Source: an uncultured virus (IMG/VR IMGVR_UViG_3300045996_004413) (taxonomy: Duplodnaviria; Heunggongvirae; Uroviricota; Caudoviricetes). Taken from it: a stretch of 57,453 nt of DNA. Below, one piece after another: positions 5,712 to 41,593 of the stretch (within the stretch, counting starts at the first letter, position 1; each line of letters opens with the position of its first letter). The notes beneath the pieces were generated by a model, which made no database searches, was not told the DNA's origin, and worked only from the letters and a program-made list of their open reading frames with translations. A program made the translations under genes and the position numbers. The stretch is taken from the IMG/VR virus record IMGVR_UViG_3300045996_004413; one strand, written 5' to 3'.

Positions 5712-6220
5712 GGCTGCACCCCTGCACCCCCGGCAGCTTCCTGTACCTCATCGTGTTCACCCTCGCGATGCTGTGCGTGGCCAGTTGCCTGAAACCGGAC
5801 ATCGCCGGCCTCAAGGGGGAGCTGCGAAACGAGATGAAGGCCGACATCCAGGCCGAGGTTAAGACCGTGGTCGACACCCGCATGTCCGGACTCAACACCG
5901 AGGTGGAGTCCATGGTCAAAGGCAAGATCGGCCAGCAGAACATCGGCATGTTCTCCGGCGGCGCCGGGATGATGCTGATTCTCTGCACCATCATCTTCGT
6001 ACTGCTTGCGGTCGTTGCGATTGCCTGCGTCGCGTTGAAGAAGGGCCGCACCAAAACCCAGAAGAAGGAAAAGCTGCTGCGGGTCTTCGCCAGCGGCGTC
6101 TCCCACGCGTCGGAGGCCCCCGTAGTAGAATCGATCATGAAGAACGCCAAGGACGCCGGAGTCGCCGGCGAAGCCACCAAGTATCTCGAGCAGGGCACCG
6201 ATGGCCGAGACCGAACCTAA
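5708..6220 (+). CDS. Lipoprotein with C-terminal transmembrane helix (unimolecular-spanin-like topology)
   Basis: Signal peptide ending in lipobox VAS-C, about 60 aa soluble segment, TM helix (LILCTIIFVLLAVVAIACVAL), then basic KKGRTKTQKK. Confidence 0.5.
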   Translation: MRLHPCTPGSFLYLIVFTLAMLCVASCLKPDIAGLKGELRNEMKADIQAEVKTVVDTRMSGLNTEVESMVKGKIGQQNIGMFSGGAGMMLILCTIIFVLLAVVAIACVALKKGRTKTQKKEKLLRVFASGVSHASEAPVVESIMKNAKDAGVAGEATKYLEQGTDGRDRT

Positions 6221-7964
6221 CCTCGCATTGCGCGACGAGCCAGAGACCCTGGCGTATCTCGCGTCACTCCCGGGAGTGCGAAAGCTTCTTGCTGCGCAAG
6301 TCCTGGAAGACTTCAAAAACGACGGCGCATCGCCCGAGACCCTGCAGCAGATCCAGCAGCAGATGGCGACCTCGCCGCAGACTTTCGAAGAGCTGCTTCG
6401 TGCCGCCGCAACCCCCGAGTTTCTGCAGGCCCGTGCCGCAGACGTGCTCAAGGCTGCCCCCGACGACGCGGTTGTTCGCAGCTACCTGAGCAAGGAACCA
6501 TCCCCCGCGCTGGGCGAGCAGAACCGGGCACTACACATCATCGGCAAGCGCATGGGCCTGTCCCCGGAACGGGTGCGGGACATCATTACCAGGGCCGGTA
6601 AAGAACCCACAGACAATTGGTTCACCAAGCTGACCCGCGACGCCGCCCCGGCGGCGGGGACGATCGCAAGCCAGCCACTTACCGGCAGGTTTTCGTCGGG
6701 AGTGGGGCCGGCGCTTTTCAACCTCGCCCGCACCCTGAGCCCCGAGGGCTCCGGCTGGAATTACAAAACCGCCCCCGAGCAGGCCCGCAAAGGCGGCATC
6801 GGGCAGGTGCTCCGGGCGACCACCCACCTTCCCCCCGACAAGCAGCGGGCCGCCCAGGAGTCCATGATCGAAGCGATCAACCGGGGGCACGACCAGCACG
6901 CGGAAGAGCTCACGGCCACGCAGAAAGCCTACGACGCCCCCCAAAGCCAGTCGGTCATGGATCCCACCGGCGGCATGCACATCGGTAAGCTTTTTGGCCT
7001 CACAGCTGCCAAGGAACCCACCACCGACGGCCAGAAATGGATCAACGCCGCCGAGAATACCGCGGGCCACCTGGTCGAGCCGTGGAACCTTGGACAGTGG
7101 AAAAACTTCCGCCCCGGCAAATTCCGTGGCGCCGTAAAGCCCATGATCCTTGCCAACACGGTGTTCGACGTCGGCAGCGATATCGCCCGCAACGCGAGTA
7201 GCGTCGACACGGCCAACGCCGGAAAAACCAACGGGGCCTGGGGTGCGATTTCCCAGACGCTCCTGAATACCGGCGGCGACGCACACCGGCGGACAGTCAA
7301 TGACGCCCCCCAGCTCGACGCCTCGCTGAAGACCAACAACTGGGGCCGCGGCTTCACCACGGCCGTGGAGCCGGCGGTGAACATCATCCAGGGTAAGAAC
7401 CTGGCGGCGTCGATCCCGCAGCTCGACAACCGGGTCGCCCAGTTGCTCAAGCTCACGCCCGATCAGCAAACACTTGCCGGCGCGGTCAACAGCTGGCGAG
7501 CCGGCAAAGGCTTTGGCACCGGATACGCCGAGGGGATCGATCAGCAAGGCAAGACGGTCGACACGGCCCTGAACAAGATTGAAAAGGGTTACCAGAATAT
7601 CGGCGGGCCCAACCAGAGCTTCCTGGGCGGTTTGTCGATCTACAAGCCCACCAACGTGTTTCGCGCCATGGGCGAGATCGCCGACTCCCGGGCGTACGTC
7701 AACAATGAGGCCCTCAAGACCCAGCAGGAAAACCAGCGGGCGATGGAAAAGGCCCAGCGAAACGTCACCTGGGGCACGAGCACCAGGGACCAGCGAGTGG
7801 CCGAAAATCAAAAGCTGCAACCAGGCGGATGGGACGGCGTCACCTGGGACCACCCCTCTTTCAAGAAAACCCCCACAACGCCCCCGGCAGCTACCACAGC
7901 TCAGCCGCCAGCGAGTACGATAGGGAAACCCCCGGGAGTGTTCGGCCGTGCCAATGCGAAGTAA
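6201..7964 (+). CDS. Hypothetical virion/internal protein (587 aa, Cys-free)
   Basis: Long ORF with phage codon bias; Gly/Ala/Gln/Thr-rich; no cysteine. Confidence 0.8.
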   Translation: MAETEPNLALRDEPETLAYLASLPGVRKLLAAQVLEDFKNDGASPETLQQIQQQMATSPQTFEELLRAAATPEFLQARAADVLKAAPDDAVVRSYLSKEPSPALGEQNRALHIIGKRMGLSPERVRDIITRAGKEPTDNWFTKLTRDAAPAAGTIASQPLTGRFSSGVGPALFNLARTLSPEGSGWNYKTAPEQARKGGIGQVLRATTHLPPDKQRAAQESMIEAINRGHDQHAEELTATQKAYDAPQSQSVMDPTGGMHIGKLFGLTAAKEPTTDGQKWINAAENTAGHLVEPWNLGQWKNFRPGKFRGAVKPMILANTVFDVGSDIARNASSVDTANAGKTNGAWGAISQTLLNTGGDAHRRTVNDAPQLDASLKTNNWGRGFTTAVEPAVNIIQGKNLAASIPQLDNRVAQLLKLTPDQQTLAGAVNSWRAGKGFGTGYAEGIDQQGKTVDTALNKIEKGYQNIGGPNQSFLGGLSIYKPTNVFRAMGEIADSRAYVNNEALKTQQENQRAMEKAQRNVTWGTSTRDQRVAENQKLQPGGWDGVTWDHPSFKKTPTTPPAATTAQPPASTIGKPPGVFGRANAK

Positions 7965-12301: not shown

Positions 12302-15300
12302 ATGCTCGACGACGAAGAGAAAAAACTCGGCATCCGGGACATGGATGACGTTGGCGCAATCCGCGAAAACGTCACAACCGGCGTTGCGTCCGCAATCCAG
12401 GGCGTCAAGCCGCTAAATTACGGTGGCGTTTCTCTTTCGCTGCACGACGTCACCCTCGGCAAGTCGCCGGATCTCTCGTACGCCGCCCAGAAGAAGGCCC
12501 TCCTCAACCGCGGCTCGGTGGGCACCCCCGTCTACGGCACCTGGCGACTCACGGACACCGAGGGCAAGGTCCTCGACGAAAAGAAGAAGCTTCTTGCCAA
12601 CGTGCCGACGATCAACAACGGCGGCACCTACATTCGCCGCGGCATCGAGTACAGCTTGGCCAACCAGGGCCGCCTGCGGTTTGGCATCTACACCCACAAG
12701 AAACTCAACGGCGAGCTGGAGAGCCACTTCAACGTGGAGCCGGGCACCGGCAACCAGTTCAAGCTCAAGCTCGAGCCGGACACCGGCAAGTTCGTGATGC
12801 GGGTCGGGCAGGCCAACCTGCCGATCGTGCCGATCCTGCGGGCAATGGGCACTGCCGACGAAAAGATCAAGCAGGTACTTGGCCAGGAGTTGTTCGACGT
12901 CAACACCGCCCGCCTCCGCGGCGACGTGGTGGCAAAGGCCGTCGAATCCCTCGGCGGCCGCGACAAGAACAAGCACGGTGATCTGCCGACGGACGAAAAC
13001 GAGGCCCTGCGGACCATCCTCGCCAAGGCCCGGTTGGATCCGGACGTCAACACCAAGACGCTGGTGGGCAAGCCATACGACCACGTCTCCCCGGACGCAA
13101 TTCTCGACTCGGTGCAGGCCCTGGTGAAACTGCACTCGGGCAAGGCCCCGCCGGACAACCGCAACAACCAGTTGTACCAGCGGGTGTGGAGCCACGAGGA
13201 CCTGTTCCCTGAGCGGATCAAGAAAGACGCTGGCGGCATCCTCCGCAAGGTTATGTGGCAGGTGTCCCGCAAAAAGAGCCTCGACGCGATCCCCTCGGGG
13301 ATCTTCAACAAGCATCTCGACCAGGTGCTCCTGGGCAGCGGACTTTCCCAGAGCCCGGAAGAGACCAACCCCACCGAAGTACTGGACCAGTTGCATCGCG
13401 TGGTGCGTATCGGCGAAGGTGCGATCCCCACGATTGACGCCGTCCCCGACGACGCCCGCGCGGTGCAGGGGTCCTACGCCGGCTTCATTGACCCGATCCG
13501 CTCCCCGGAATCCGAGAAGGTGGGCGTTGACAACCGATTCGCCCACGGCGTGAGAAAGGGAAAAGATGGCCAGATCTACACCAAAATGCTCGACGTTAAA
13601 ACGGGGAAGCAGCGTCTGGTATCCGCCGACGAAGCCGGGACTGCCGTGGTTGCTTTTCCGCATGAAATGGATCGCCCTGGCAATGACCGGGTGCGTGCGG
13701 TCGTCCAAGGCCGCATCCAGCGGGTCGACCGCGACCAAGTCAACCTCGTGATGGCCCATCCGGCGAACCTGTTCACCATGCAGTCAAACCTGATGCCCAG
13801 CATCGGCTCGGTGGCCGGCGGCCGCGTGTTCCTCGGCGCCAAGTTCGTGTCCCAGGCCCTGCCGCTGATCAACCGCGAGGCGCCGCTGGTGCAGGCCGAG
13901 CACCCCGACGGTGAGTCGTTCGAAAGCAAGATCGGCCGGAAGATCGGCACCGTGGCGTCCGACCGTGACGGGCTTGTCACCAACGTGACCGACGACGAGA
14001 TCACCGTGGAAGGCCCTCGAGGGCAGAAGGTGTTCTCGATCGCCAATTTCGTGCCCTACAACCGCAAGACATTCCTCAAGCATCACCCGTCGGTCAAGAT
14101 CGGCGACCGTGTCACTGCCGGCCAACTCCTGGCCACCAGCAACATGACCGACAAGAACGGCAACCTCGCACTGGGCACCAACCTGCGGGTGGCCTACGTG
14201 CCGTTTTCCCGCGGCGGGGGCAACAACTACGAAGACGCGATCGTTCTGTCGGAGTCCGGAGCCAAGAAGCTCACCGCCGAACAGATGTACACTCACAAGC
14301 TTGACTTCAACGAAGGCAAGCCCGACGCCGCCCAGCACCGCTCCCTGTTCCCGGGGATCTTCAACAAGAAACAGTTGGACCGCATCGGCCCCAACGGCAT
14401 CATCCTGCCCGGCAGCACCGTGGAGAAGGGTGACCCCATTGTCCTCGCCGTGCGTCAGCGGGATCCCAAGAAACCAGGCATGGGCAAGAGCAATTCATCT
14501 CGCCGATACGCGGATGCATCCATCCTTTGGGACCATGACCACCCGGGGTACATCACGGACTCGGCGATCGGCCCCAATGGCGTGGTCGTCGCGAGTCGTG
14601 TCGAGAATCCCATCCATGTCGGGGACAAGATGGCTGGACGGTTCGGCGACAAGCACATCGTCAGTGCGATCGTTCCCGACGCCCAGATGCCCGTCGATGA
14701 AAAGGGCAATGTTTTCCATGCGATTGTGAATCCGCACGGGATCATCAGCCGCGGCAACCCCGCGCAGATCGCTGAAGCTGCGTGGGGGCGAATCGCCGAA
14801 CTCACCGGCAAACCCTCGATCGTGCCGAGCATGAGCCTCGACGACCTGAACGCCAAGGCCAAAGAGGGGCTTGCGTTCCACGGCCTGCGGGACACCTCGG
14901 ACATGTTCGACCCGGTCCTCAACCGCAAGATTGCCAACATCGCCTCGGGCAATCGCTTCTACATGCGTCTGCACCACCTTGCTGAAGGCAAGCTCACTGG
15001 CCGCAGCGACACGGGTAACTTCAACCAGGACGGCGAACCGTCCAAGGGCGGCGGCGAGTCTGCCCCCCGCGTGGGCCTCATGGAGGTCAACGCCCTGTAC
15101 GCCGCCGGCGCCAACCACGTGCTGGACGACACCCATCAGGTCAAAGGCTCGCGCAACGAAGATTACTGGCGGGCCATCCGCATGGGCTTCTCCCCGCCAG
15201 CCCCCAAGTCCCCCGAGGTGCTCAAGAAATTCCTCGCTCTCCTTGCCGCCTCCGGCGTGAACGTGCAGCAGGAAGGTTCCCGCCTGCACGTGATGGCAAT

Positions 15301-16717
15301 GACCGACAGCCAGGTCGACGACATCGCCCAGGGCGAGATCAAGGTCGCCGATACCGTGCGGTTCCCCGACATGCAGCCGATCGATGGCGGCCTGTTTGAC
15401 CGCGGCATCACCGGGGGCCACGGAGGCGACCGCTTCGGCAAGATCGAACTGGGGGTCAAGATCCCCAACCCGGTCATGGAAGAGCCGATTCGCAAACTGT
15501 TGGGACTTACCGAAAAGTCCCTACGAAACGTAATGAGCGGAAAAGATGAGCTCAATGGAGAAACGGGACCCAAGGCGATCGCTGAGGCCCTGCGAGGCAT
15601 CAACGTTGACCGTGAGATCGAGAACGCCAAGCAGAAGATCCGCACAGCGAAACGATCGCCCCGAGATGCCGCCATCAAGAAGCTCCGGGTCCTCGAGATG
15701 TTCAAACGCACGGACCTCAAACCTGAAGACATGATGATCTCCAAGCTGCCGGTGCTGCCGCCATCGTTCCGCCCGATCTCGATGATGAACGATGTGCCGC
15801 TGGTGAACGGCAGCAACATGCTCTACAAGGACCTGCTGCAGGCCAAGGAAAATTACCACGGCCTGCTCAAGAGCCTCGGCCCGGCCAACACCGGCGATGA
15901 AATGCTCGCGGTGTACGACGCTGCCAAGGCCGTGGTAGGCCTGGGCGAGCCGATCAACAAGGAAACGCAGCAGCGGCGGGCCAAGGGCCTGCTGTCGGTC
16001 ATCTTCGGCGACAGCCCCAAGAACGGCACGTTCCAACGGAAGATGATGGGCAAGACCGTCAACCTGGGCGGCCGCGCGGTGATCACCCCGGACCCCCGCC
16101 TCAACATGGACCAGGTCGGCGTCCCCGAGGAAATCCTGTGGAAGTCCTACGCCCCCTTTGTGATGCGTCGCATGGTGCGCCGCGGCATGAAGCCCCTGGA
16201 GGCCCAGCAGGCGATCAAGGAGCGCACCCCCTCGGCCTACGGCGAATTGCACAACGAGATGCAGGAACGCCCGGTGATGATCAACCGCGCTCCTTCGCTG
16301 CACCGCTACAGCATCATGGCGGCCTGGCCGGTGCTCACCAAGGCCAAGAGCCTGCGAATCTCCCCGGTGGTCACTTCGGCCTTCAACGCCGACTTCGATG
16401 GCGACACCATGGCGGTCCACGTGCCCGCCAGCGACAAGGCGATCGAAGAAATGATCGACAAGCTGATGCCCAGCCGTCAGCTCCTGAGCACCAAAAACTT
16501 CAAGGCCCACTTCCTGCCCCGGCAGGAATACCAGCTGGGTTTGTACGAGGCGACCAAGCCTTCGGCAAAGAAAAATCCGGTGGTTTTCGAAGATCTAAAA
16601 GCTGCAATTCGCGCTTTTAGACAAGGTCAGCTCAACCTTGATGATATAATCGAAGTTCCTGGGGCCCAGCCCCATCCAACTGCTGTCGCAGACGTCACGC
16701 AAGGATTACTGTCATGA
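12302..16717 (+). CDS. rpoBC: DNA-directed RNA polymerase: complete beta fused to N-terminal half of beta-prime (1471 aa)
   Basis: Beta motifs: GGTYIRRGIEYSLANQ, RSPESEKVG, GAKFVSQALPL, LALGTNLRVAY..NYEDAIVLSE, GDKMAGRFGDK, NPHGIISRGN, YMRLHHL, RVGLMEVNAL. Beta-prime motifs follow: GLFDRGITGG, LPVLPPSFRP, GKTVNLGGRAVI, NRAPSLHR and catalytic NADFDGD (16385-16405). Confidence 0.97.
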   Translation: MLDDEEKKLGIRDMDDVGAIRENVTTGVASAIQGVKPLNYGGVSLSLHDVTLGKSPDLSYAAQKKALLNRGSVGTPVYGTWRLTDTEGKVLDEKKKLLANVPTINNGGTYIRRGIEYSLANQGRLRFGIYTHKKLNGELESHFNVEPGTGNQFKLKLEPDTGKFVMRVGQANLPIVPILRAMGTADEKIKQVLGQELFDVNTARLRGDVVAKAVESLGGRDKNKHGDLPTDENEALRTILAKARLDPDVNTKTLVGKPYDHVSPDAILDSVQALVKLHSGKAPPDNRNNQLYQRVWSHEDLFPERIKKDAGGILRKVMWQVSRKKSLDAIPSGIFNKHLDQVLLGSGLSQSPEETNPTEVLDQLHRVVRIGEGAIPTIDAVPDDARAVQGSYAGFIDPIRSPESEKVGVDNRFAHGVRKGKDGQIYTKMLDVKTGKQRLVSADEAGTAVVAFPHEMDRPGNDRVRAVVQGRIQRVDRDQVNLVMAHPANLFTMQSNLMPSIGSVAGGRVFLGAKFVSQALPLINREAPLVQAEHPDGESFESKIGRKIGTVASDRDGLVTNVTDDEITVEGPRGQKVFSIANFVPYNRKTFLKHHPSVKIGDRVTAGQLLATSNMTDKNGNLALGTNLRVAYVPFSRGGGNNYEDAIVLSESGAKKLTAEQMYTHKLDFNEGKPDAAQHRSLFPGIFNKKQLDRIGPNGIILPGSTVEKGDPIVLAVRQRDPKKPGMGKSNSSRRYADASILWDHDHPGYITDSAIGPNGVVVASRVENPIHVGDKMAGRFGDKHIVSAIVPDAQMPVDEKGNVFHAIVNPHGIISRGNPAQIAEAAWGRIAELTGKPSIVPSMSLDDLNAKAKEGLAFHGLRDTSDMFDPVLNRKIANIASGNRFYMRLHHLAEGKLTGRSDTGNFNQDGEPSKGGGESAPRVGLMEVNALYAAGANHVLDDTHQVKGSRNEDYWRAIRMGFSPPAPKSPEVLKKFLALLAASGVNVQQEGSRLHVMAMTDSQVDDIAQGEIKVADTVRFPDMQPIDGGLFDRGITGGHGGDRFGKIELGVKIPNPVMEEPIRKLLGLTEKSLRNVMSGKDELNGETGPKAIAEALRGINVDREIENAKQKIRTAKRSPRDAAIKKLRVLEMFKRTDLKPEDMMISKLPVLPPSFRPISMMNDVPLVNGSNMLYKDLLQAKENYHGLLKSLGPANTGDEMLAVYDAAKAVVGLGEPINKETQQRRAKGLLSVIFGDSPKNGTFQRKMMGKTVNLGGRAVITPDPRLNMDQVGVPEEILWKSYAPFVMRRMVRRGMKPLEAQQAIKERTPSAYGELHNEMQERPVMINRAPSLHRYSIMAAWPVLTKAKSLRISPVVTSAFNADFDGDTMAVHVPASDKAIEEMIDKLMPSRQLLSTKNFKAHFLPRQEYQLGLYEATKPSAKKNPVVFEDLKAAIRAFRQGQLNLDDIIEVPGAQPHPTAVADVTQGLLS
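16642..16650 (+). promoter_or_regulatory. Internal extended -10 promoter (TGATATAAT) in the 3' end of the RNAP gene
   Basis: Perfect TGn-TATAAT in a locally AT-rich, codon-atypical stretch about 65 bp upstream of the next start. Confidence 0.55.
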
Positions 16718-18195
16718 CCAAGATCGCTGAGCTTCGGGCCAAGGCCAAGAACATCAAAGTCGCTGCCGATTTCTGGTGCAAGTCGTGCAAGCGGCCCAAG
16801 TCAGGCTGCCCTTGCACAATGAAGACCAAGAACAAGGTGGCGGCCGCCGGCGCGCCGGCACCTTCGCCGGGCTCCCCGCCGCCGACTCCCGGCGCTGCCC
16901 CCGCTGGCGGCGCTCCGACTCCTGGCGCTCCCGCCCCGGCATCTGCCGCCCCGCCCGCTGGCGGCCCGCAGGTCCCGGATCCCACCCAGCCCAACATGCC
17001 CCCGGGCGCCGCAGGCACCGTCCCCACGGGCGTGACGCAACAGGTGGACGCTCTCACGCAGGCCAAGCAGCAGGCTGAACAAGCCAAGCAGCAGGCCGAC
17101 CTGATCCGTGCTGAAGGCATCAAGGTCAAATCCCAGATGCAGATCGCCAAGGAGCAGCAGAACCTGCAGAAGATCCAGCAGCAGGCCCAACAGTTCCAAC
17201 AGGCAGCCGCTGCCCCCGCCCCTGCACCCGCCCCCGGCGGCGGTGCAATGGGTGCAACCCCAGGTGCAATGGGCGGTACAACCCCCGGCGGCGCACCTGG
17301 CGGTGCACCGGGCGGCGCTCCCGCCCCGGCCGCCCCCAAGATGGCGAGTGCCAAGATCGCCAGCGTGAAGCTCACGCTGCTCAAGAAGAAAGCTGCCGCG
17401 AACCGCCGCATCAACGACACGATGGCCGACCTGTGCGCGATCAACGAAGTATTGATCTGCGATCTCAATCCCGAGCACGTGAAAGCAGCGAGTAGCACGA
17501 TCCCGCTGTCGTCCACGCAGCCCTGGCTGGTGGACTTCTGCCTGAACTCCAACGGCAGCGGCCGGGTCGCCGACATGATCAACCAGCGCCTCCACGGCAA
17601 CGCCCGCGTCGAGAAGATCGCCGCCGGGGATCTTCTCGCCTACCGCAACGTCCTCGAGCGGGGCATTCGCCTTGATCGCGGCATCCGCAAGATGGCAGGC
17701 ATCATCGCTACCTCAGTGGAAAAGCGTGCCGCGGACGCCCAGACGCCGATCCCCGCCATGGTGCTAACCAAGGCCGCGACCGTGGTGGGAGAAGACATTC
17801 TCCTGCCCCTGCGACAGGCCGTGGCCCTCAAGTTTGACCGCTACCTGCGTAAACAGGCAGCGATGCTCTCGACCGTGACGGTGACCACCAAGCAAGGGTC
17901 CAAGACCCTGCCGGTTGTTACCCTCGATGACGCGTCGCGCAGCCTCGCCGAAGTCATGCAGGCGGATGACGCGACCCCGGAGACGCAGGCCCAGAAGGAA
18001 GCCGCGGTACGCGTGATCTTCCTCAAGCATGCTGCCCTGCGGAAAGCGGCAAACATCCAGGTGTTGGAACACGCGGGCGCAGCAGCCCTTGTCGGTAATG
18101 ACAGCGTGGGCCTGTCCAAGTGTCTCATTGGCCTTGCTGCCGAAGGCGTCTTTGGCGACGCCGCCATGAGCAGCGTTCTTGGAATCGAAGCATGA
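16714..18195 (+). CDS. K-x-A-rich, Pro/Ala/Gln low-complexity protein with N-terminal Cys cluster (493 aa); putative inner-head/scaffold-like protein
   Basis: ATGA-coupled to the RNAP gene; CKSC...CPC; more than a dozen K-x-A motifs. Confidence 0.8.
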   Translation: MTKIAELRAKAKNIKVAADFWCKSCKRPKSGCPCTMKTKNKVAAAGAPAPSPGSPPPTPGAAPAGGAPTPGAPAPASAAPPAGGPQVPDPTQPNMPPGAAGTVPTGVTQQVDALTQAKQQAEQAKQQADLIRAEGIKVKSQMQIAKEQQNLQKIQQQAQQFQQAAAAPAPAPAPGGGAMGATPGAMGGTTPGGAPGGAPGGAPAPAAPKMASAKIASVKLTLLKKKAAANRRINDTMADLCAINEVLICDLNPEHVKAASSTIPLSSTQPWLVDFCLNSNGSGRVADMINQRLHGNARVEKIAAGDLLAYRNVLERGIRLDRGIRKMAGIIATSVEKRAADAQTPIPAMVLTKAATVVGEDILLPLRQAVALKFDRYLRKQAAMLSTVTVTTKQGSKTLPVVTLDDASRSLAEVMQADDATPETQAQKEAAVRVIFLKHAALRKAANIQVLEHAGAAALVGNDSVGLSKCLIGLAAEGVFGDAAMSSVLGIEA

Positions 18196-18671
18196 ACCAG
18201 ACATTGACCATCGTGGTGCCTGAGACCCGGGCGCAGATCAAGATCGCCTTCACCAAGGAGGCGGCGACGGTCGCACCGGGACTTGGGTTCGACTTTCAAA
18301 ACAAGATCGACGTTGCCGCTATGGTCAACACCTGCCAGATGCTGCGCAACAGCGAGATCGTCGCGCCGCCTGCCGTGAAGGCCGCGGTGGTTGCTGTTCC
18401 CGGCGGACAAGAGCAGGGTGCTCAGGGCACCCAGGCCCCGCCCCCGGGGGCAGATGCCCCCCAATTGGTGGACCGCCAGACATTCGATTCAACGGTGCAG
18501 CAGATGCAGCAACAGATCGCCGCCCTCGAACAGGCGCTGGCCTCCCAGGGCGGCGCACCTGCAGCACCCCCGGCATCGCCTCCGCCGGTCGCCGGAGCGG
18601 CTCAGCCTCAAGCCGCTCCGGCCCCCCAGGCGACGCCCAAAGCAGCCAAGGTCACTTGTCACTTGCTGTGA
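18192..18671 (+). CDS. Hypothetical Pro/Ala/Gln-rich protein (159 aa)
   Basis: Start moved to ATG 18192 (ATGA overlap); KIAFTKEAA motifs; short coiled coil. Confidence 0.7.
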   Translation: MNQTLTIVVPETRAQIKIAFTKEAATVAPGLGFDFQNKIDVAAMVNTCQMLRNSEIVAPPAVKAAVVAVPGGQEQGAQGTQAPPPGADAPQLVDRQTFDSTVQQMQQQIAALEQALASQGGAPAAPPASPPPVAGAAQPQAAPAPQATPKAAKVTCHLL

Positions 18672-18678
18672 GATTCCC

Positions 18679-18906
18679 GTGCTTGTCGAACTTCACAATG
18701 GCTCGGTGCTTACCCGGCCCTCAGTTTTTGACAACGTGTCAGCGGTCAAGGTTTTCGGCCTCAACCGGCAGCTCATTGCGATCATCCACGAGTTACAACC
18801 CGGGGTGACGCAGGTCGTCGACGCCGACGATCCGGACTTTGCATCGGTATGCAAGAACTACGGGATCAACACCAAACCCGCCGTGGCTATCGAGGTGGAT
18901 CAGTGA
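18679..18906 (+). CDS. Small hypothetical protein (75 aa) coupled to the beta-prime C-terminal gene
   Basis: GTG start within ORF 18391..18906; globular sequence VELHNGSVLTRPSVFDNV...; its stop overlaps the next start (GTGA). Confidence 0.65.
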   Translation: MLVELHNGSVLTRPSVFDNVSAVKVFGLNRQLIAIIHELQPGVTQVVDADDPDFASVCKNYGINTKPAVAIEVDQ

Positions 18907-20723
18907 GAGCGACGCTCGGCGCAATCCTGGTGAACTCCGTCCTGCCGGAGGAGTTCCGCGACTACAACCGCACGTGGGACAAGAAAACCACGTCCGCGGT
19001 CATGGACGCGGTCGCCAAGAAATACCCCAACGATTACCGGGACATCGTCCATAAGCTCCACGAGATCGGAGGCCTGGCAGCATATACCTCCGGTCACACG
19101 GTCACCCTTAACGACCTCGCCTCCGTCGCCCTCCCACCCGAAAAGACCATGGAGATCAACCGGGCCATCGACAAGATCACCGACTCCAAGGGGTCCTTTG
19201 ATGAAAAGAACAAGCAATTGCTGGAGTTCCTCGGCAAGATCGGCGAGGACGCCGAAGTTTCCACGCTGCAGGCCCTGACCCAGAGAAACAACCCCCTGGC
19301 CAAGGAAGTCAACGCCGGTGCCCGTGGAAACGCCACGCAGCTCAACTCCATGGTCGGCTCTTCTTCGCTGGTGCTCGACCAGGACAACAACCCCGCCCCC
19401 GTGGCAATCATGAACAGCCTGTCGCACGGCCTGTCTCCTGCGGAGTATTTCGCCCAGAGCTTCGGCACCCGCCGCGGGGCGATCTCCACCAAGATGGCCA
19501 CCGCCGACTCAGGCTTTCTCGGCAAGCAGCTGGCACTGGCGGCCCACCGCCTGATCGCCACCGACGATGAACCTATGCCGGGCCTGGGGCTGCCAGTGGA
19601 CGCCTTCGATGAAGACAACGTGGGCGCTGCCTTGGCCCAGGACGTTGGCCCTTACAAAGCAGGCACGATCATTACGTCCTCCATGGTCAAAAGCTGGCCC
19701 AAGGGCACAAAGCGGATCCTGGTGCGCAGCCCGGTCTCCGACATCTCCCCCGACGGTGGCGTGCCGCGTCTTTCTTTAGGTATCCGGGAAAATGGGATTC
19801 CGGAACACGGCGAAGAAGTGGGGATACCGGCAATCCAGACGATCACCAACGACCTCAGCCAGGGGGCGCTCAATGAAAAACACCGCGGCGGGGCCGGCGG
19901 CGTGCGCAAAGCCGGATTCAAGGTCATTAACCAACTCGTCCAGGTTCCCAAGGTATTCCCGTCCGGCGCTGCTCATGCCGCCCTCGACGGGAACGTCACC
20001 GCGATTACCGACGCCCCACAGGGGGGCAAGTACATCCACATCGGAGACACCAAGCATTACGTTGCCCCCGACCAGTCGCCGACGGTCCAGAAGGGCGCCA
20101 GCGTCGAAGCCGGCGACGTGATGAGCAACGGCCTGCCCAACCCCTCGGTGATCGTGCACCACAAGGGCATCGGCGAAGGCCGGCGATACTTCACCGACCT
20201 GATGCGGGACGTGCTCAACGAGAGCAAGCTGGGGGCAAATCGGCGGAACATTGAGTTGATGGCCCGCTCGGTCATCAACCACGTGCGGGTGAAAGACGAG
20301 TCCGACGCCCTGCCCGGGGCGCTCCCCGGCGACGTGGTGGAATACGATCGGCTCGCCCACTCCTACCAGCCCCGCGAAGGGGCCCTGGAAGTCCCGGCCA
20401 CCAGCGCCAAGGGCGGGTACCTTGAGAAGCCGGTGCTGCACTACTCCATCGGCACCCAGATCAAGCCCAGTGTCAGCCGCACCCTCAAGGAGTTCGGCGT
20501 CAAGACAGTCACTGTCCACAAGGACCCGCCGCCGTTCGAGCCCTACCAGGAACGGGTCATGACCTCCATGCTGCAGTCTCCCGACTGGGCCGAGCGGCTG
20601 GGCGGATTCTACACCTCCAAGGGCATGCTCGACGCCGTTCACCGCGGCGGTTCGAGCGACCTGAACAGCAACTCCTACATCCCCAAGCTGGTGTTCGGCG
20701 CCCCGCTGGCCGGCGACAAATAA
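18903..20723 (+). CDS. rpoC: DNA-directed RNA polymerase beta-prime C-terminal half (606 aa)
   Basis: GTG start with GAGGTGG SD. Motifs: TLGAILVNSVLP, GARGNATQL, bridge helix GLSPAEYFAQSFGTRRGAISTKMATADSGFLGKQL, trigger loop GEEVGIPAIQTITNDLSQGALNEKHRGG, RRNIELMARS. Confidence 0.95.
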   Translation: MRATLGAILVNSVLPEEFRDYNRTWDKKTTSAVMDAVAKKYPNDYRDIVHKLHEIGGLAAYTSGHTVTLNDLASVALPPEKTMEINRAIDKITDSKGSFDEKNKQLLEFLGKIGEDAEVSTLQALTQRNNPLAKEVNAGARGNATQLNSMVGSSSLVLDQDNNPAPVAIMNSLSHGLSPAEYFAQSFGTRRGAISTKMATADSGFLGKQLALAAHRLIATDDEPMPGLGLPVDAFDEDNVGAALAQDVGPYKAGTIITSSMVKSWPKGTKRILVRSPVSDISPDGGVPRLSLGIRENGIPEHGEEVGIPAIQTITNDLSQGALNEKHRGGAGGVRKAGFKVINQLVQVPKVFPSGAAHAALDGNVTAITDAPQGGKYIHIGDTKHYVAPDQSPTVQKGASVEAGDVMSNGLPNPSVIVHHKGIGEGRRYFTDLMRDVLNESKLGANRRNIELMARSVINHVRVKDESDALPGALPGDVVEYDRLAHSYQPREGALEVPATSAKGGYLEKPVLHYSIGTQIKPSVSRTLKEFGVKTVTVHKDPPPFEPYQERVMTSMLQSPDWAERLGGFYTSKGMLDAVHRGGSSDLNSNSYIPKLVFGAPLAGDK

Positions 20724-20785: not shown

Positions 20786-20830
20786 GTACTCTGCTATTAC
20801 TCTTACCCGAATTACGTGAGGGCCGCGGAC

Positions 20831-23134
20831 ATGGGCGCCACCAAGCAAGCCACCAACGACGTTGAATTCGAGCAGCGGTTGCAGCAGCTCTGCCTGCCGC
20901 AGATCAAGTCCAAGATTCCGCGCCTCGCCCCCATGATGATGGGTTTCGAGTTGCTCAACGTCAATGACGACGAGACCGAGGCCGCTGGGATCTACGCGTT
21001 CCGCGTGGGTGAGCAGCTGGTGTACGTGCCGGTCTTTTTCCGCGAAGGCATGATCAAGGGTTTGAACATGCTGTACCTGGAGAAGGACGATCTCTTTCTC
21101 CCGGCCGAGGAAGAATGGATCTCCTACATCATCAACCGCGAACCCTACACCGTCGGCAAACTCACAAGCCGCGAAGAACTCAACCGCGATTACCGTGACA
21201 CCTTCTCCAACGTCGCCAACGCCTTTGGTAAGACCGCCGCTGATGGCCGCCGCGCCTTCCAGAAGATGGCAGCCGTTGCCACGCTGGCTGCGCACGCAAA
21301 ACAGGTCCCTGATCTCGAAGCGCTGCTGCAGCGGTTCCCCAAGTCCGCCACCCTGAGCCTCCTGAACACCATGCAGATGGACGACGATTTTGGGCGGGCT
21401 GTGCTCCAGTTCTATCCCTTCCAGAAGCTCGCGGCGATCGCCGAGAAGATCGAGAACAACAAACGGCAGGAAAACGCCTCGGCCGACCCGATCAACGGCA
21501 AGGAAAACCAGGGCATCAAGTACAAGCGTAAGCCGCTGGCCCTGACCTCCGACGACAGCGGCCTGCTCGACGCCGACCTGACCGATGACGAACGCAAGCA
21601 GATCCGCGTGGACGGCGTTGCAATCCGCGACGACCGGGATTCCAAGGACGTCACTGATGTTCTGCGGACCGAGACCCCCACCCAGTGGTTTGCTCCGACC
21701 CACCCCGGCGTTTACGACCTCATCGACGTCAAGGGCGCCATTCAAAAGGCCGTGATCTTCACCAGCGTCATCACCGTGGGCGATGGTTCCGCCCGCTGCA
21801 TCGTTGCTGTCACCAAGGACAAGGACGGCGGGGTATTTGCCCCGGGCGTCATGACCGCCACTGATGCCTACCCGGATGAGGCTTGGAACCGCTGGCACGA
21901 CGAGCTGCCGACGATCGGCGAAGCCGACATCTCCGACGGAGATCGGTTCGTCCTTGTCACCCGTGACATGCGGGCGACACCCCTGCTCCGGGCGATCGGC
22001 GTTAAGACCAAGAACTCTGACGATCGCACCACCACGCTGTTTGTCGACCACACCACCCACGTCGAGTTGCCCCGCAGCTCCGATCTGTACGGCGACAGCT
22101 ACGGCACCGGGCCGGTTGGATACGTTGGCGGCAACTCCAAGCGGGGCCAGCGACCCGGGATCTCCATGGACAACGAACCCGAAAGCACCGGGGTGCTCGA
22201 CAAGTACTTCGAACGACGGATTGAACGCGGCGAGGCTAAGGCCAGCGACGCGGAGTCCTACGACTACAAGCGCGGCCGCCGGATCACGATCGTCAAGAAC
22301 GACGAGACCCAGGAGATGGAAACCAGCGGCAACCAGCTGCTGGTCAGCGATGCAGTCCGCGTGCTCAAGCTCTCCAAGGACGACAAGGACACGGCCCGCA
22401 ACCTGATGGCCCCCTGCGACAGCTCGTTGTGGCCACGCATCAAGCAGGCCAACGCCAAGTTCCAGAAAATGGTCGTCGCCGCCCGCGGCACCAACGAGTA
22501 CGACATCTCCTGCGGCCTGGTCAAGAGCGGCACGGTCAACCACCGCGACGCAATCCTCCACCTGGTCATGGTCCATGGGACCAACAAGGCAGCGGCGATC
22601 CGCATGATGGCTGAGGCCCAGAAGGCAGCGTCCAAGCGGAAGGAAGCCCCGGTCTTTGCGGTCAAGCACGCTGATTCCTACCCCGACTTGGACATCAGCA
22701 GCAGCGCCGGGGGCAGCGGGGGCGTGGAAGAGACCGCAAACCGGGTCCACCAGGACTCCGGCGGCGGAAACCCTTTCCTGACCGAAGACATCAAGAGCAT
22801 CACCAACGCCGCCAAGTCCGGTGAGAAGTCGATGTTTGACACCGCGGTGCTTGTCTCGCTGGTTCGCCGGCATGACATCGGCGCTGCGATCGACGAACTC
22901 ATCAGCCCGGCAACGCTGGGCATCGACAGTTGGTGCCGCGCCCTGTTCCTGCTGTACGCCCACCGCCAGGCCTTCGAAGACAAGTACGGGACCGAAGATG
23001 TCCCGCAGCTCGAAGACGCTCTCGAGAACCTGATCAAGGAGAGCGGCGAGGTCCTGCTGATCCTGAAGAAGCAGTCCACCGAAGCGGAATCTGGTCTCGC
23101 CGAGCCCAAGAACGATCTCGAGCCCAGCGCCTAA
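20831..23134 (+). CDS. Large hypothetical head-module protein with K-x-A motifs (767 aa)
   Basis: ATG 20831 with GAGG SD preferred over GTG 20816; strong codon bias; KQAT, KTAA, KMAA, KLAA, KQAN, KHAD. Confidence 0.85.
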   Translation: MGATKQATNDVEFEQRLQQLCLPQIKSKIPRLAPMMMGFELLNVNDDETEAAGIYAFRVGEQLVYVPVFFREGMIKGLNMLYLEKDDLFLPAEEEWISYIINREPYTVGKLTSREELNRDYRDTFSNVANAFGKTAADGRRAFQKMAAVATLAAHAKQVPDLEALLQRFPKSATLSLLNTMQMDDDFGRAVLQFYPFQKLAAIAEKIENNKRQENASADPINGKENQGIKYKRKPLALTSDDSGLLDADLTDDERKQIRVDGVAIRDDRDSKDVTDVLRTETPTQWFAPTHPGVYDLIDVKGAIQKAVIFTSVITVGDGSARCIVAVTKDKDGGVFAPGVMTATDAYPDEAWNRWHDELPTIGEADISDGDRFVLVTRDMRATPLLRAIGVKTKNSDDRTTTLFVDHTTHVELPRSSDLYGDSYGTGPVGYVGGNSKRGQRPGISMDNEPESTGVLDKYFERRIERGEAKASDAESYDYKRGRRITIVKNDETQEMETSGNQLLVSDAVRVLKLSKDDKDTARNLMAPCDSSLWPRIKQANAKFQKMVVAARGTNEYDISCGLVKSGTVNHRDAILHLVMVHGTNKAAAIRMMAEAQKAASKRKEAPVFAVKHADSYPDLDISSSAGGSGGVEETANRVHQDSGGGNPFLTEDIKSITNAAKSGEKSMFDTAVLVSLVRRHDIGAAIDELISPATLGIDSWCRALFLLYAHRQAFEDKYGTEDVPQLEDALENLIKESGEVLLILKKQSTEAESGLAEPKNDLEPSA

Positions 23135-26535: not shown

Positions 26536-27990
26536 ATGTTCAAGATCTGGTCCCCCTACGGCTTCAACACCGACGTCGACCCCTTCAAGATCGTGCGGAT
26601 CTCCAGCAAGGGCGCCGACCGGTCGTGGATGAAGTCCGCCTCCGTCTCCCCCCTGCTGCAGGGGATCCTTGCGGGCGAGTTCCAGAACTATAAGCTGGCC
26701 AAGGATCACACCTTGGTGTGGCTTGCGCCCGTGGCCCAATCCGAGTGGTTTTCCTGCAACGTCAACGGCGACGGCTTCAGCAAGAGGGCCTGCGAGAACT
26801 TCCACGAGACCTTCCTGACCGGGCACAATTTCCGCGAACACGATAACCAGGATCCCAAGAAGGGATTCGGCCGCCCGGTCGCCACGGCCTACAACCCGGA
26901 GATGGGCCGCATCGAGCTGCTGTCCGACGTGGACAACACCAAGAACGCCAGCGTCATCGAGGCGCTGGAAAACGGTCGCGCCGTGGACTGGTCCATGGCC
27001 TGCCGGATCGACTACGACGTGTGCAACGTGCCCGAGTGCGGCAACCGCGCCACCACCCCCCACGGCCCCGGCCCCAAGGATGCCAGCCGCCAGGAACTCG
27101 ATCGGCCCAAGCCGGGATACTGCAAACACGCCCGGGAAATGCTCGGGGCAATCCTCTCCGACGGCCACCGGGTTTACGTCGACAACCCCCACCCCTACTT
27201 CTTTGACTGCAGCCAGGTTGCGACCCCGGCCGAAGTCATCGCCCGGACCATGCAGTTCCGCAAAGCGGCCTCCAGCAAGGTGGTCGCCGGGCAGAGCGGG
27301 GCGGACCTGGCGATCGCCGCCGGCCTCGAGACCCCCCTGTACATCACCGCAAGCCTCCCCTCGGCGTTCACCCGCAAGGCGGCCATCGCCCAGAAGCTGG
27401 CGGAGATGGAGAAGCGGATGCCCATGGAAATGACCGCCTGGCGGTCTCTGGCGGCGGGCAAACCGACCATCTCAGAAGAGTCGAAGAAAAAAATCAAAGA
27501 AAAAACTGCCAGCGAAACGGCGACTCTCGGGGCCTTCCGCGCACAGGAAATTTTCCTCGATCTTCGGACCTTCTCCCAGGTCACAAAACTTGCCTCGGAA
27601 TCGACCATCGAAGAAGCCGAGAAACACCTGCCGGTCTTGTTCACCAAGCTTGCGGATCGCCAGCTGCTCACCGACGCGGCCAATGACGGCACGTACGATA
27701 ATTGCCCTGTTTCCCCGGGAAATTCTGCAAGTGTCAAACTGGCCAGCGAACTCGCCCCCGAGTTGTCGCTCGCGGCACACCACGTTCGGACACGCCTGAT
27801 CGAGACCGAGGAATCGGCTCCGATTCTCGCGTCGAAAAACACTCCGAAAATCGCCTCGGTTTCCGCCGACCGTTTGCTCCGGAAATACGCCGCCTACGTG
27901 TTGAGCGAATTGACCAACTGCAAGGACGCAGGCGAGTTGAACGTGCGGATGCCCTTGACTGTGCTCAGCCGTGCGGTAGCATCGAACTGA
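26536..27990 (+). CDS. Prohead (capsid maturation) serine protease with Zn-binding insertion
   Basis: NGDGF, FREH (candidate catalytic His), WSMAC (candidate catalytic Ser), CNVPECGN...YCKH, and FFDCSQVATPA matching the E/D-x-S-x-V-x-x-P-A end of HK97-type proteases. Directly upstream of scaffold and capsid genes. Confidence 0.75.
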   Translation: MFKIWSPYGFNTDVDPFKIVRISSKGADRSWMKSASVSPLLQGILAGEFQNYKLAKDHTLVWLAPVAQSEWFSCNVNGDGFSKRACENFHETFLTGHNFREHDNQDPKKGFGRPVATAYNPEMGRIELLSDVDNTKNASVIEALENGRAVDWSMACRIDYDVCNVPECGNRATTPHGPGPKDASRQELDRPKPGYCKHAREMLGAILSDGHRVYVDNPHPYFFDCSQVATPAEVIARTMQFRKAASSKVVAGQSGADLAIAAGLETPLYITASLPSAFTRKAAIAQKLAEMEKRMPMEMTAWRSLAAGKPTISEESKKKIKEKTASETATLGAFRAQEIFLDLRTFSQVTKLASESTIEEAEKHLPVLFTKLADRQLLTDAANDGTYDNCPVSPGNSASVKLASELAPELSLAAHHVRTRLIETEESAPILASKNTPKIASVSADRLLRKYAAYVLSELTNCKDAGELNVRMPLTVLSRAVASN

Positions 27991-30503: not shown

Positions 30504-31511
30504 GTGAAAGAATACATGGGTTCCACTCTGACTCCCGCCGAAGTCAAGCAGTCGAACGAGCAGATGCTCGAATGGCTGCGGTCTGACTCGGAAGGAGGCG
30601 GGACGAAAGCCGCCGCGTCCACCACGGAGATGATCCGTACGCGTGTTCGCGAAGGTTCAATCGCCCGGAACATCCTTTCGCCGCGCAACATCGGCCCCGC
30701 GGACCTCGTGCCGTCGCTGACGGACGACGATCCTCGCTACCTGGGCGAGATCGAGCCGGACACCCCGGGCGGCGTCGTGCTGCCGTTGGGCGCCCGTCCG
30801 CAGGCGTGGTACTTCTTCGGCAAGCGTTACGAAGCGCGGTTCAACCGCCTCGAGACGCCGCGCTACATGAAGGACACCACCCAGCTGCTCACCTACAAGA
30901 CGGACCTCCGGCAGGTGCTCAGCGACGCGTCGCTCAAGGACCTCCTGTCCCTGGAAGACACCCGGTTCATCCAGATGTGCAACAACGTCATGGCGCCCAC
31001 CACGCTGACCTACGGGGAAACCAACCCCAGCAGCGGCGTGATCCAGTGGGACTCGATCAACGACGACATCAACCCCACCTCGGTGGCCGATGCGTTGACG
31101 ATCATGAACCGCTCCAACTACGGCCTCGATCCCGCGACCGTGCTCGTGAACCTCAACTTCGCCAAGCAGATGATGAAGTGGGGCCGCGACGACTTCGGTG
31201 GTGATCTCGCCGAAGATGTGAAGAAGAACGGCTTCACCGAGCGCCAGTTCATGGGCGTGCGGTGGCTGGTGACGATCAAGAACTGGCTGGTTCCGGACGG
31301 GGCCATGTTCCAGTTCGCTCCGCAGGAATTCATCGGGGAAACCCTGATCCTGACGGACTCGACGATGCACGTCCGCAAGGACGCGTACAACATCGAGTTC
31401 TGGTCGTACCAGGAAGTCGCCCAGATCCTGGCCAACTCGGCTGGTATCGCCCGCTGTGACTTCCTCCTGGCCAGCTGGTCGGGCGGTGACGGCACCCGCA
31501 CCTACGTCTAA
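30504..31511 (+). CDS. Major capsid protein (HK97 fold, 335 aa)
   Basis: AGGAG SD. Size, position after protease/scaffold, strong codon bias and downstream terminator fit. Also IRTRVREGSIARNIL, a KDLLSLEDTRFI spine-helix-like segment, and FMGVRWLVT. Confidence 0.8.
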   Translation: MKEYMGSTLTPAEVKQSNEQMLEWLRSDSEGGGTKAAASTTEMIRTRVREGSIARNILSPRNIGPADLVPSLTDDDPRYLGEIEPDTPGGVVLPLGARPQAWYFFGKRYEARFNRLETPRYMKDTTQLLTYKTDLRQVLSDASLKDLLSLEDTRFIQMCNNVMAPTTLTYGETNPSSGVIQWDSINDDINPTSVADALTIMNRSNYGLDPATVLVNLNFAKQMMKWGRDDFGGDLAEDVKKNGFTERQFMGVRWLVTIKNWLVPDGAMFQFAPQEFIGETLILTDSTMHVRKDAYNIEFWSYQEVAQILANSAGIARCDFLLASWSGGDGTRTYV

Positions 31512-34518: not shown

Positions 34519-34676
34519 CCACGTATGGACAGCCAGGCAAGAGAGAGCCCAACCAGCCCACAAGCGTGGTGAAAGAGAACGCTGCGCCCAAAGATCGCGA
34601 GCAGCCAATCATCGAAACCGTTTCCGTGCGAGAGTGGAAACCCTCATGGGAGTCGATCATCAGAGCTTTGAGGTAA
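34515..34676 (+). CDS. Possible small protein (53 aa)
   Basis: ATGA-coupled to the previous gene (MTTYGQPGKREPNQ...WESIIRALR); 3' end overlaps the convergent endonuclease gene. Confidence 0.35.
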   Translation: MTTYGQPGKREPNQPTSVVKENAAPKDREQPIIETVSVREWKPSWESIIRALR

Positions 34677-41550: not shown

Positions 41551-41582
41551 AATAAGGTCCGCTTCGGCGGGCCTTATTTTTT
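41551..41582 (+). terminator. Intrinsic terminator
   Basis: AATAAGGTCCGC-TTCG-GCGGGCCTTATT followed by a T-tract. Confidence 0.9.
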
Positions 41583-41593
41583 AGGAACACGCA

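Follow-up and report, generated by a model that had tools for sequence, protein, structure and literature searches.

Cellular RNA polymerases are thought to need a platform of alpha (Rpb3/11-like) subunits. Full fusions of the two large subunits, beta and beta-prime, occur in Helicobacter and Wolbachia, and these enzymes are cellular, with alpha and omega. Here we examine a phage locus in which the large subunits are both fused and split. It occupies positions 12302–20723 of a 57,453-nucleotide stretch of DNA (63% G+C, genes mostly on the plus strand) from an uncultured tailed virus (IMG/VR record IMGVR_UViG_3300045996_004413), to which we refer as the window. A first gene encodes the whole of beta joined to the N-terminal part of beta-prime (the fusion protein), and a second one, further downstream, encodes the remainder of beta-prime (the C-part). 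The present analysis follows up a preliminary description of this locus, which had proposed a rearranged, two-chain phage RNA polymerase.

The available parts of two reviews of jumbo-phage polymerases describe the phiKZ and AR9 plans only, and mention the mReC, the multimeric-RNAP-encoding Caudovirales (PMC7598289, PMC7824862). The phiKZ and AR9 enzymes are, like that of the window, of the beta/beta-prime type and lack alpha and omega; one form is packaged in the virion, and beta-prime is split past the catalytic barrel. They consist of four or five pieces, more than here, as the preliminary description had said, and their beta is split too, whereas that of the window is whole and fused. Their genomes carry two polymerase sets, while each complete relative of the window has one, and no sigma homologue, while the window has a sigma-like gene, so that the combination typical of phiKZ and AR9 (beta and beta-prime both split, two sets, no sigma homologue) is not found in the window. 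These polymerases are also far more divergent from the bacterial enzymes, and none of them is among the 60 best matches of the window proteins in the PDB.

The mReC are uncultured tailed phages, some of more than 200 kb, whose beta and beta-prime were found with bacterial COG models and have virion genes around them (Weinheimer and Aylward 2020, PMC7481178), in all of which the window resembles them. In the available parts of that paper, beta and beta-prime are treated as two subunits, the words "fused" and "fusion" are used for crAss-like phages only and "split" is never used; in the supplement, as far as the first 10 places for each term go (out of 118 and 116), COG0085 and COG0086 are for the most part distinct genes next to each other, frequently with two sets to a contig. 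The mReC capsid protein and terminase are given there as PF07068 and PF03237, whereas the capsid homologue of the window has no Pfam match at E ≤ 0.01. The detection rule, as stated in those parts (matches to both models, at least 800 residues, NADxDGD), could have let fusion proteins in unnoticed. The window, a tailed-phage contig with matches to the bacterial beta and beta-prime models and the NADxDGD motif, shares these particular features with the mReC.

Among cultured phages, Salmonella phage Arash (OQ632216) and Vibrio phage D69 have the same two-gene plan as the window (1525 + 606 residues in Arash, 1527 + 609 in D69), with the same in-frame junction and the same order of portal, fusion, C-part, virion protein and capsid genes. 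Both genomes contain one polymerase set, one or more sigma genes, and no match to alpha or omega. The likeness is distant: identity to the window is about 31% for the fusion protein and 26% for the C-part. In Arash, nine genes, most of them on the other strand, lie between the two polymerase genes, and a helicase gene follows the C-part. The Arash proteins are called beta and beta-prime in GenBank and in the paper that describes the phage, whose available passages hold no remark on a fusion (PMC10585845). According to the same passages, mass spectrometry of Arash virions gave the most spectra for Gp206 (3516), with 1210 for Gp216, 1148 for the helicase Gp217 and 467 for the sigma factor Gp10, and the authors consider a role in early transcription or else carry-over (PMC10585845). 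In the literature searched, which does not cover subscription journals, we found no description of the fused-and-split chain plan, and the accession OQ632216 is cited there by its own paper only. Moraphage phages have no RNA polymerase genes (PMC12619734).

The first polymerase gene of the window is a single open reading frame (ORF) in which Pfam recognizes both large subunits: Rpb2_3 (residues 353–414) and Rpb2_6 (559–902, E 1.3e-40) on the beta side, then Rpb1_1 (1103–1163, below cut-off) and Rpb1_2 (E 4.1e-29, best stretch 1319–1385) on the beta-prime side. The protein also matches one beta-like and one beta-prime-like phage family of the PHROGs. In the PDB, bacterial beta and beta-prime chains match its two halves, with E down to 2.6e-54 for the single sequence, and E 2.5e-117 (beta) and 2.5e-75 (beta-prime) for a profile of 26 family members. 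In these 26 sequences D775, K776, R780 and K784 are invariant; we take this motif to be the counterpart of the two catalytic lysines of bacterial beta. The aspartates D1364–D1368 of the beta-prime motif are equally invariant (26/26) and lie inside the Rpb1_2 match; the chain ends about 100 residues beyond them. Arash gp206 aligns with the protein in a single piece, over 96% of the length and with 31.6% identity. The Pfam, profile and motif data thus agree with the preliminary description of one 1471-residue chain that runs through the beta motifs and into beta-prime up to NADFDGD, and the profile scan that it had proposed finds the Rpb2 and Rpb1 domains in one ORF.

The position of the junction was obtained from both sides. 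E. coli RpoB could be aligned up to residue 1338 of 1342, which falls at position 991 of the 26-member profile, and residues 996–1110 of the fusion protein align to the 1–200 segment of E. coli RpoC, starting from about RpoC residue 35, with a score of 72.5 compared to 29.5 ± 4.7 (maximum 44.5) in 200 shuffles. Since RpoB ends at position 991 and RpoC begins just after, the junction is at residues ~990–995, that is at about nucleotides 15270–15285, and the seam that had been read near 15270 is found at the same place by both alignments. An AlphaFold2 model of residues 560–1471 (42-row alignment, predicted local distance difference test score, pLDDT, of 73, predicted template-modelling score of 0.47) was used for local features only. 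It shows two adjacent strands at the junction, residues 986–991 and 994–999, with a two-residue turn between them; the pLDDT is 61 for the block of residues 990–999, and 79 and 87 for the flanking blocks. The model also has two long helices (1170–1192 and 1198–1212) where the E. coli alignment puts the clamp coiled coil. A single-sequence search of the PDB with a 161-residue piece around the junction gave no relevant match.

The missing half of beta-prime is encoded 2.19 kb downstream of the fusion gene. The C-part protein matches Pfam Rpb1_5 (E 1.6e-14) and PDB beta-prime chains (E 8e-26), and can be aligned residue by residue with M. tuberculosis beta-prime through the bridge helix and the first trigger-loop helix, whose Lys-His pair is invariant in 46 C-part sequences. 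Arash gp216 finds it in tblastn with E 8e-48. On the 1147 positions of the NCBI rpoC model TIGR02386, the fusion protein covers 155–533 and the C-part 542–1065; the two pieces abut, so nothing has been lost between them. The bridge helix and trigger loop are therefore where the preliminary description had put them, in a second gene 2.2 kb downstream, the start of which calls for one correction. The stop codon TGA of the preceding small gene (18904–18906) overlaps a GTG at 18903, GAGGTGGA stands just upstream of this GTG, the alignments of relatives begin at its residue in 50/75 loci, and the resulting 606 residues are the length of Arash gp216. For these reasons a start at GTG 18903 is more likely than one at ATG 18849, and we read the gene as 18903–20723.

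Both the fusion and the split have bacterial parallels. In the NCBIfam fusions NF007172 and NF011417, as in the window, beta-prime follows with its N-terminus immediately on the C-terminus of beta, and no NCBIfam model scores better with the fusion protein than NF007172 (E 8e-96). On the other hand, the chains of these families have ~2840–2890 positions and hold all of beta-prime, whereas that of the window ends at about position 550 of the 1147 of the rpoC model, and its score is 321 bits against a curated cut-off of 5372. In the cyanobacterial and plastid enzymes, where beta-prime is divided into gamma and beta'', the break also comes shortly past the catalytic barrel, but gamma is not fused to beta, unlike the N-terminal part of beta-prime in the window. 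For the AlphaFold2 model, Foldseek ranks chains of cyanobacterial gamma and plastid RpoC1 first, and such chains are also among the best sequence matches; the beta-prime half of the model matches gamma and beta-prime chains with E ~1e-29, despite poor global superposition. The aligned part of the fusion protein stops at position 551 of 619 of the gamma model, with 20 residues remaining, and the beta'' model begins opposite residue 39 of the 624-residue reading of the C-part, so the break is near the cyanobacterial one, roughly 20–50 residues earlier. The earlier comparison with the cyanobacterial split thus holds for the neighbourhood of the break and not for the exact site, and the scores against the NCBIfam models of the cyanobacterial split (TIGR02387, TIGR02388) lie far below the cut-offs (177 for a cut-off of 975.9).

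In cellular RNA polymerases, the zinc sites of beta-prime have a role in assembly. In the local alignment, the window has gaps immediately past the junction where E. coli carries C70, C72, C85 and C88. The four cysteines of the second site, C814, C888, C895 and C898 of E. coli, align exactly with the four cysteines found in some C-parts, where the window has P, D, P and S. The fusion protein and the C-part together contain no cysteine in 2077 residues; from the rate in the other ORFs of the window (66 cysteines in 11,542 residues), about 12 would be expected. The absence of cysteine is general in the fusion family (23/26 sequences) and frequent in the C-part family, in which 41/46 sequences have none and 5/46 have exactly four; Arash and D69 also keep the four cysteines of the second site. 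A quick maximum-likelihood tree was made for the C-part (50 rows; outgroups, E. coli and a Rhizobium-phage beta-prime; midpoint root). It groups the 41 cysteine-free rows, including the window on a long branch, in one clade (support of 99 in the Shimodaira–Hasegawa-like approximate likelihood ratio test), which lies inside a grade of four-cysteine rows with Arash and D69 branching first. The tree suggests one loss of the second zinc site within the family. By these alignments, the first site is deleted in the window, and the second was lost in the sub-clade to which it belongs.

No member of the alpha or omega families was found by Pfam (E ≤ 0.01) among the 42 ORFs of the window, most of which are on the plus strand. 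The search was extended to five relatives with complete genomes, namely Arash, D69 and three from IMG/VR (224–229 kb, rated 100% complete). PF01000 (alpha) and PF01192 (omega) were detected in 0/5 of them at E ≤ 1 (controls, 14/14). Each of these genomes has one place that matches Rpb2_6 and one frame that carries Rpb1_2, and the two are the same frame, of 1459–1546 residues. The absence of a recognizable alpha or omega gene, first remarked in the window, thus extends to complete genomes. To sum up the comparison with a bacterial core enzyme, the window encodes the beta barrel with its lysine motif (Rpb2_6), the beta-prime barrel with NADFDGD (Rpb1_2), and the bridge helix and trigger loop (Rpb1_5, PDB alignment); the two zinc sites of beta-prime are lacking, the first opposite gaps and the second replaced, and no alpha dimer or omega is encoded with the enzyme.

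The chain plan is not peculiar to the window. We collected 82 related loci. Two are those of Arash and D69; the other 80 come from IMG/VR, in which 237 of the 317 candidate stretches encode a relative, and lie on contigs of at most 229 kb. One alignment passes through the junction in one open frame in 82/82 loci, and the C-part follows downstream on the same strand in 75/82; five of the seven others end within 2 kb, and two (L016 and L030) have a flank of ~10 kb in which there is no C-part. This arrangement defines what we call the Arash-like fused-and-split plan, of which the window is an example. Among 50,697 phage records, tblastn gave a match in 48, and four of these cover at least 80% of the fusion protein: those of Arash and of Vibrio phages D181, D148 and D69, in all of which the plan is present. 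In a protein-collection search with residues 850–1250, 8000 candidates were scored and 865 were hits at E ≤ 0.001; all of the 120 hits listed carry PF00562 and PF00623. An identical protein is on record from a contig of 119 kb. An exhaustive search of 1.84 billion cluster representatives with residues 760–1471 gave 10,999 hits at E ≤ 0.001, and the best 150 of these representatives (clusters at 50% identity; E ≤ 4e-164) all span the junction. Judging from these sequences, the layout is common to hundreds of large phages, and the enzyme of the window belongs to a large clade of myoviruses of roughly 180–230 kb that includes Arash, D69, D148 and D181.

The stretch itself is contained in two soil-metagenome runs from two studies. 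A 17.7-kb contig of one run covers all of 12302–20723 with 0 differences, and a 5.7-kb contig of the other covers 14137–19795, again with 0 differences. The check across the junction that had been proposed on reads was thus carried out on contigs, and the junction is covered without a difference in both runs; it is important to note that both may be sources of the window, and are therefore not fully independent. In both runs, contigs of 31–32 letters, with a depth up to 110, are stacked on 16377–16405, ending in the DFDGD codons; they are probably the same conserved motif from the rpoC genes of many other organisms. Small joints in the read layout, with sides of 21 letters, probably stem from other organisms as well and were disregarded. 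When prokaryote species genomes were searched, the best 80 of 599 matches were ordinary rpoB–rpoC regions, 25–37% identical, outside the fusion family, and these 80 gave no clue to the host.

That the fused frame is an artefact (an assembly chimera, a frameshift or a misplaced piece of bacterial rpoBC) therefore has a practically negligible probability. The same in-frame junction recurs in all the loci examined, including the genomes of three cultured phages from other laboratories, and in at least 150 clusters at 50% identity; the identity to bacterial beta and beta-prime is only ~25–37%; the closest species-genome matches are not of this family; and the fusion is surrounded by phage portal, capsid, sheath and baseplate genes. 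We found no point in favour of an artefact, apart from the fact that the two runs may both be sources of the window. The preliminary description was right in taking the fusion for real rather than for an assembly chimera, and the enzyme for that of a phage rather than a host rpoBC.

The polymerase genes lie between the portal and capsid genes in the window as in Arash and D69 (Table 1), which bears out the earlier placement of the locus inside the head module, here by tblastn homologues on both sides. The portal homologue has no Pfam or PHROG match. The gene directly after the C-part encodes a protein of 772 residues, the 53-member profile of which finds Arash gp218 (E 2.6e-25), a structural protein detected by mass spectrometry according to the available parts of the Arash paper, and D69 gp266 (E 3e-16). 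A homologue of this protein lies downstream of the C-part in 62/82 loci; its ORF has no PDB sequence match below E 0.1. No terminase was identified in the window. The structural gene at about 26683–27432 was first mapped as minus-strand ORFs, on a map of longest ORFs; antisense ORFs that are long but spurious abound in this G+C-rich window. At 41553–41583, just before a gene that starts at 41594, a G+C-rich hairpin with a T run after it looks like an intrinsic terminator; if functional, it would be the type of signal that bacterial-type polymerases read. A candidate promoter motif, TTGRGCTGAGC, was dropped (4 matches for 2.84 expected).

Table 1. Coordinates in the window of the polymerase genes, their motifs and the surrounding genes.
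Feature	Position	Strand	Remarks
Portal homologue, 603 residues, upstream border of the head region	2905–4716	+	tblastn: Arash gp204, E 4e-40; D69 gp259, E 8e-47
Fusion gene, 1471 residues	12302–16717	+	One stop-free ORF: complete beta, then the first part of beta-prime (catalytic barrel included)
Beta active-site motif GDK...GDK (D775, K776, R780, K784)	14624–14653	+	Invariant in 26 family members
Junction: last beta strand, two-residue turn, first beta-prime strand	15257–15298	+	Residues 986–999
Site of the missing N-terminal zinc-binding segment of bacterial beta-prime	15413–15430	+	Residues ~1038–1043; E. coli RpoC alignment
DFDGD, Mg-binding aspartates of beta-prime	16391–16405	+	Residues 1364–1368; invariant 26/26; inside Rpb1_2 match
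493-residue ORF	16714–18195	+	Start ATG overlaps the fusion stop; Gln/Ala/Pro-rich stretch
Small conserved gene, 75 residues from GTG 18679	18679–18906	+	Stop overlaps the C-part start; profile E 1.7e-8
Beta-prime C-part gene: bridge helix, trigger loop, C-terminal clamp part	18903–20723	+	606 residues from GTG 18903 (624 if ATG 18849); Rpb1_5
Conserved virion-protein homologue, 772 residues, directly after the polymerase genes	20816–23134	+	53-member profile
Structural protein	~26683–27432	+	tblastn: Arash gp222, D69 gp270
Major capsid protein homologue, 335 residues, downstream border of the head region	30504–31511	+	tblastn: Arash gp226, E 3.5e-28; D69 gp275, E 2.9e-27
Recombination endonuclease VII, 170 residues, between capsid and tail-sheath genes	34660–35172	-	PF02945, E 2.3e-21
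Tail sheath	35939–38692		PHROG match
Sigma-70-family-like protein, 235 residues, candidate promoter-specificity factor	51405–52112	+	PHROG 351, Sigma70_r3
Baseplate J	52952–54553		Pfam/PHROG match

The sigma-like protein matches PHROG 351 ("RNA polymerase sigma factor", E 2.5e-13) and Pfam Sigma70_r3, with 26.8 bits for a cut-off of 25.3; its match to TIGR02937 (E 2.9e-9) is below the cut-off. A 587-residue ORF at 6201–7964 has a weak match to Sigma70_r4 (residues 106–132, E 0.0027, below cut-off), which may be due to chance or point to another, divergent sigma-like protein.

Two ORFs separate the fusion gene from the C-part gene in the window. The first one, of 493 residues, has a homologue in only 1/82 loci, that of the closest relative (L004), and no match in Pfam, PHROG, NCBIfam or the PDB (none below E 0.1), nor a usable hit in the ESM Atlas. 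The possibility that it corresponds to a gene of ~240 residues found at the equivalent position in the relatives was rejected (hhalign probability 27%). The second one, the small gene, aligns over its full length to a family of ~80 residues that sits between the polymerase genes in 71 of the 75 loci that hold a C-part; the ~240-residue family occupies the same interval in 70/75. The median distance between fusion and C-part genes in the relatives is 982 nucleotides, and 51 of the 75 gaps are within 850–1110. The ~80-residue family could not be detected in Arash or D69 by profile search, in contrast to the window, and the profile of the ~240-residue family matched (E ≤ 1) neither the window nor the loci of Arash and D69. 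AlphaFold2 folds the 75-residue protein with a pLDDT of 85.6, as five strands and one helix; it has no Pfam match, and no Foldseek match in the PDB at E ≤ 0.001 (best E 1.1).

Two further observations concern the polymerase genes of other phages. Many homologues of the fusion protein are 1800–3000 residues long (P0003, P0006, P0010, P0016, P0018, P0032 and others) and carry inserts, with precomputed Pfam matches to intein/LAGLIDADG (PF14890, PF14528), GNAT (PF13673, PF13508, PF00583) and SET (PF00856) domains; from these sequences, the polymerase gene appears to be a frequent landing site for inserts. Rhizobium phage RHph_Y65 (MN988525, 8953–12336) and Vibrio phage Va2 (MW073017, 8737–12315) encode unsplit, full-length beta-prime-like proteins, of 1127 and 1192 residues respectively, that match both the N-terminal part and the C-part of the window's beta-prime. 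PF00562 has no match at E ≤ 0.01 in the whole of these two records (controls, 14/14), and the proteins appear to be lone phage beta-primes that have no recognizable beta.

We propose, with a probability that we put at roughly 70%, that the two genes encode the phage's own bacterial-type multisubunit RNA polymerase, made of two catalytic chains. Chain 1 (1471 residues) comprises the whole of beta, the two-residue turn, and the N-terminus of beta-prime through the clamp helices and the Mg-binding barrel; chain 2 (606 residues) brings the bridge helix, the trigger loop and the clamp's C-terminal part. With both barrels on one polypeptide, the halves of the active site would be made in a fixed 1:1 ratio, and the covalent link between beta and beta-prime would take over the assembly role of the alpha dimer. 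The enzyme would be packaged in the capsid as in Arash, enter the cell with the DNA and start phage transcription independently of the host enzyme, the sigma-like proteins of the phage giving promoter specificity via the retained clamp helices. By analogy with Arash, the window enzyme is probably a packaged polymerase: the abundance of the Arash chains in virions would explain why the polymerase genes lie between the portal and capsid genes.

Several observations speak against this proposal, or weaken parts of it. The enzyme of the window's phage is known from its sequence alone, and none of the listed sequencing runs containing the stretch is an RNA run. For packaging, the only known case is Arash, whose fusion protein is ~31% identical, and the authors of that study, in its available passages, raise the alternative of carry-over. 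The absence of alpha and omega was seen with Pfam models, which very divergent versions could escape, and the phage could use the alpha of its host. The two chains may be an incomplete set, considering the ~75-residue gene coupled to the C-part and the ~240-residue gene present in most relatives, although not in the window. The trigger-loop helix is divergent, its histidine being invariant nonetheless, and Sigma70_r2 was detected in only 3/5 complete relatives. Last, the AlphaFold2 model is mediocre: its domain arrangement differs from that of solved polymerases by a root-mean-square deviation of ~22 Å, with a template-modelling score of ~0.24.

One alternative to the proposed two-chain enzyme is that the working polymerase has more than two phage chains, the ~75- and ~240-residue proteins being extra subunits or assembly factors in place of omega or alpha. 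We consider this unlikely, yet worth keeping in mind: both families are found between the polymerase genes in nearly all loci that hold a C-part (71/75 and 70/75), the small gene's stop overlaps the start of chain 2 in the window, and the small protein folds confidently. Omega is helical, however, and the small protein is beta-rich, hence not omega-like in its fold; nothing in Pfam or among PDB folds matches it, Arash and D69 have no detectable member of either family, the larger family is absent from the window, and gene neighbourhood alone is weak evidence. A complex prediction of chain 2 with the ~75-residue protein, with a score of 0.00, speaks neither for nor against binding. It is also conceivable, though improbable, that the polymerase is a non-packaged intracellular enzyme that uses host alpha, perhaps with host omega; in that case the position of its genes in the head region and its occurrence in Arash virions would be incidental. 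Nothing in the window shows packaging, and the Arash authors do mention the carry-over of abundant enzymes (available passages). Against it, Gp206 gave the most spectra of all in Arash virions, where Gp216, the sigma factor and the neighbouring helicase were abundant too, as far as those passages report; Arash, D69 and the window all keep the polymerase genes between those of portal and capsid, chain 2 is followed by the gene of a virion protein homologue in 62 of the 82 loci, and the phiKZ- and AR9-type polymerases work without alpha or omega, according to the available parts of the review (PMC7598289).

In some large phages a head protease acts on virion proteins, and one may ask whether the fusion protein, too, is made as a precursor that is then cleaved (by a prohead protease, for example), at the junction or close to it, into separate beta and beta-prime N-terminal parts. 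The Arash proteome, in its available account, gives peptide coverage and not intact masses, which is compatible with such a cut. We hold it to be very improbable, since the modelled junction is a tight two-residue turn between strands and has no exposed linker, and since there is no conserved cleavage motif around it in the 26-member alignment. Besides, full beta/beta-prime fusions stay uncut in some bacteria, and NCBIfam has models of such fusions.

Regarding the overall picture drawn in the preliminary description, we retain the two catalytic chains; their number may be an undercount of the enzyme's components, given the coupled ~75-residue gene and the sigma-like gene of the window. Both barrels are indeed on one chain, and the possible independence from alpha is backed only by the absence of alpha genes. 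As to a derivation from the bacterial enzyme, the part that our data support is that bacterial models match far better than archaeal ones. We put forward more tentatively, as a doubtful extension of the two-chain proposal, that the polymerase of this clade would be a minimal, self-sufficient, capsid-carried enzyme, lacking alpha and omega and, in the branch of the window, also zinc and cysteine, which would act as the sole polymerase from the first to the last gene, re-aimed by phage sigma factors. If the enzyme is indeed carried in the capsid, the loss of metal sites and thiols would be an adaptation to packing, passage through the tail and refolding.

The finding has a consequence for annotation: hundreds of entries named "RNA polymerase subunit beta" or "hypothetical protein" are beta plus half of beta-prime. 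Since relatives have been cultured (Arash on Salmonella, phages of the D69 type on Vibrio), the questions that this enzyme raises can be tested directly: what the smallest set of chains for an active bacterial-type polymerase is, how the enzyme is packed and delivered, and whether one enzyme with several sigma factors can serve the whole transcription programme. The family also adds to the debate over the ancient or derived origin of phage multisubunit polymerases a lineage with clear step-wise changes. The enzyme occurs in nature, is very widespread and retains ~30% identity to the beta and beta-prime of bacteria; it seems to do without alpha, omega, both zinc sites and all cysteines, and its chain plan has been rewired so that both catalytic barrels are on one polypeptide.

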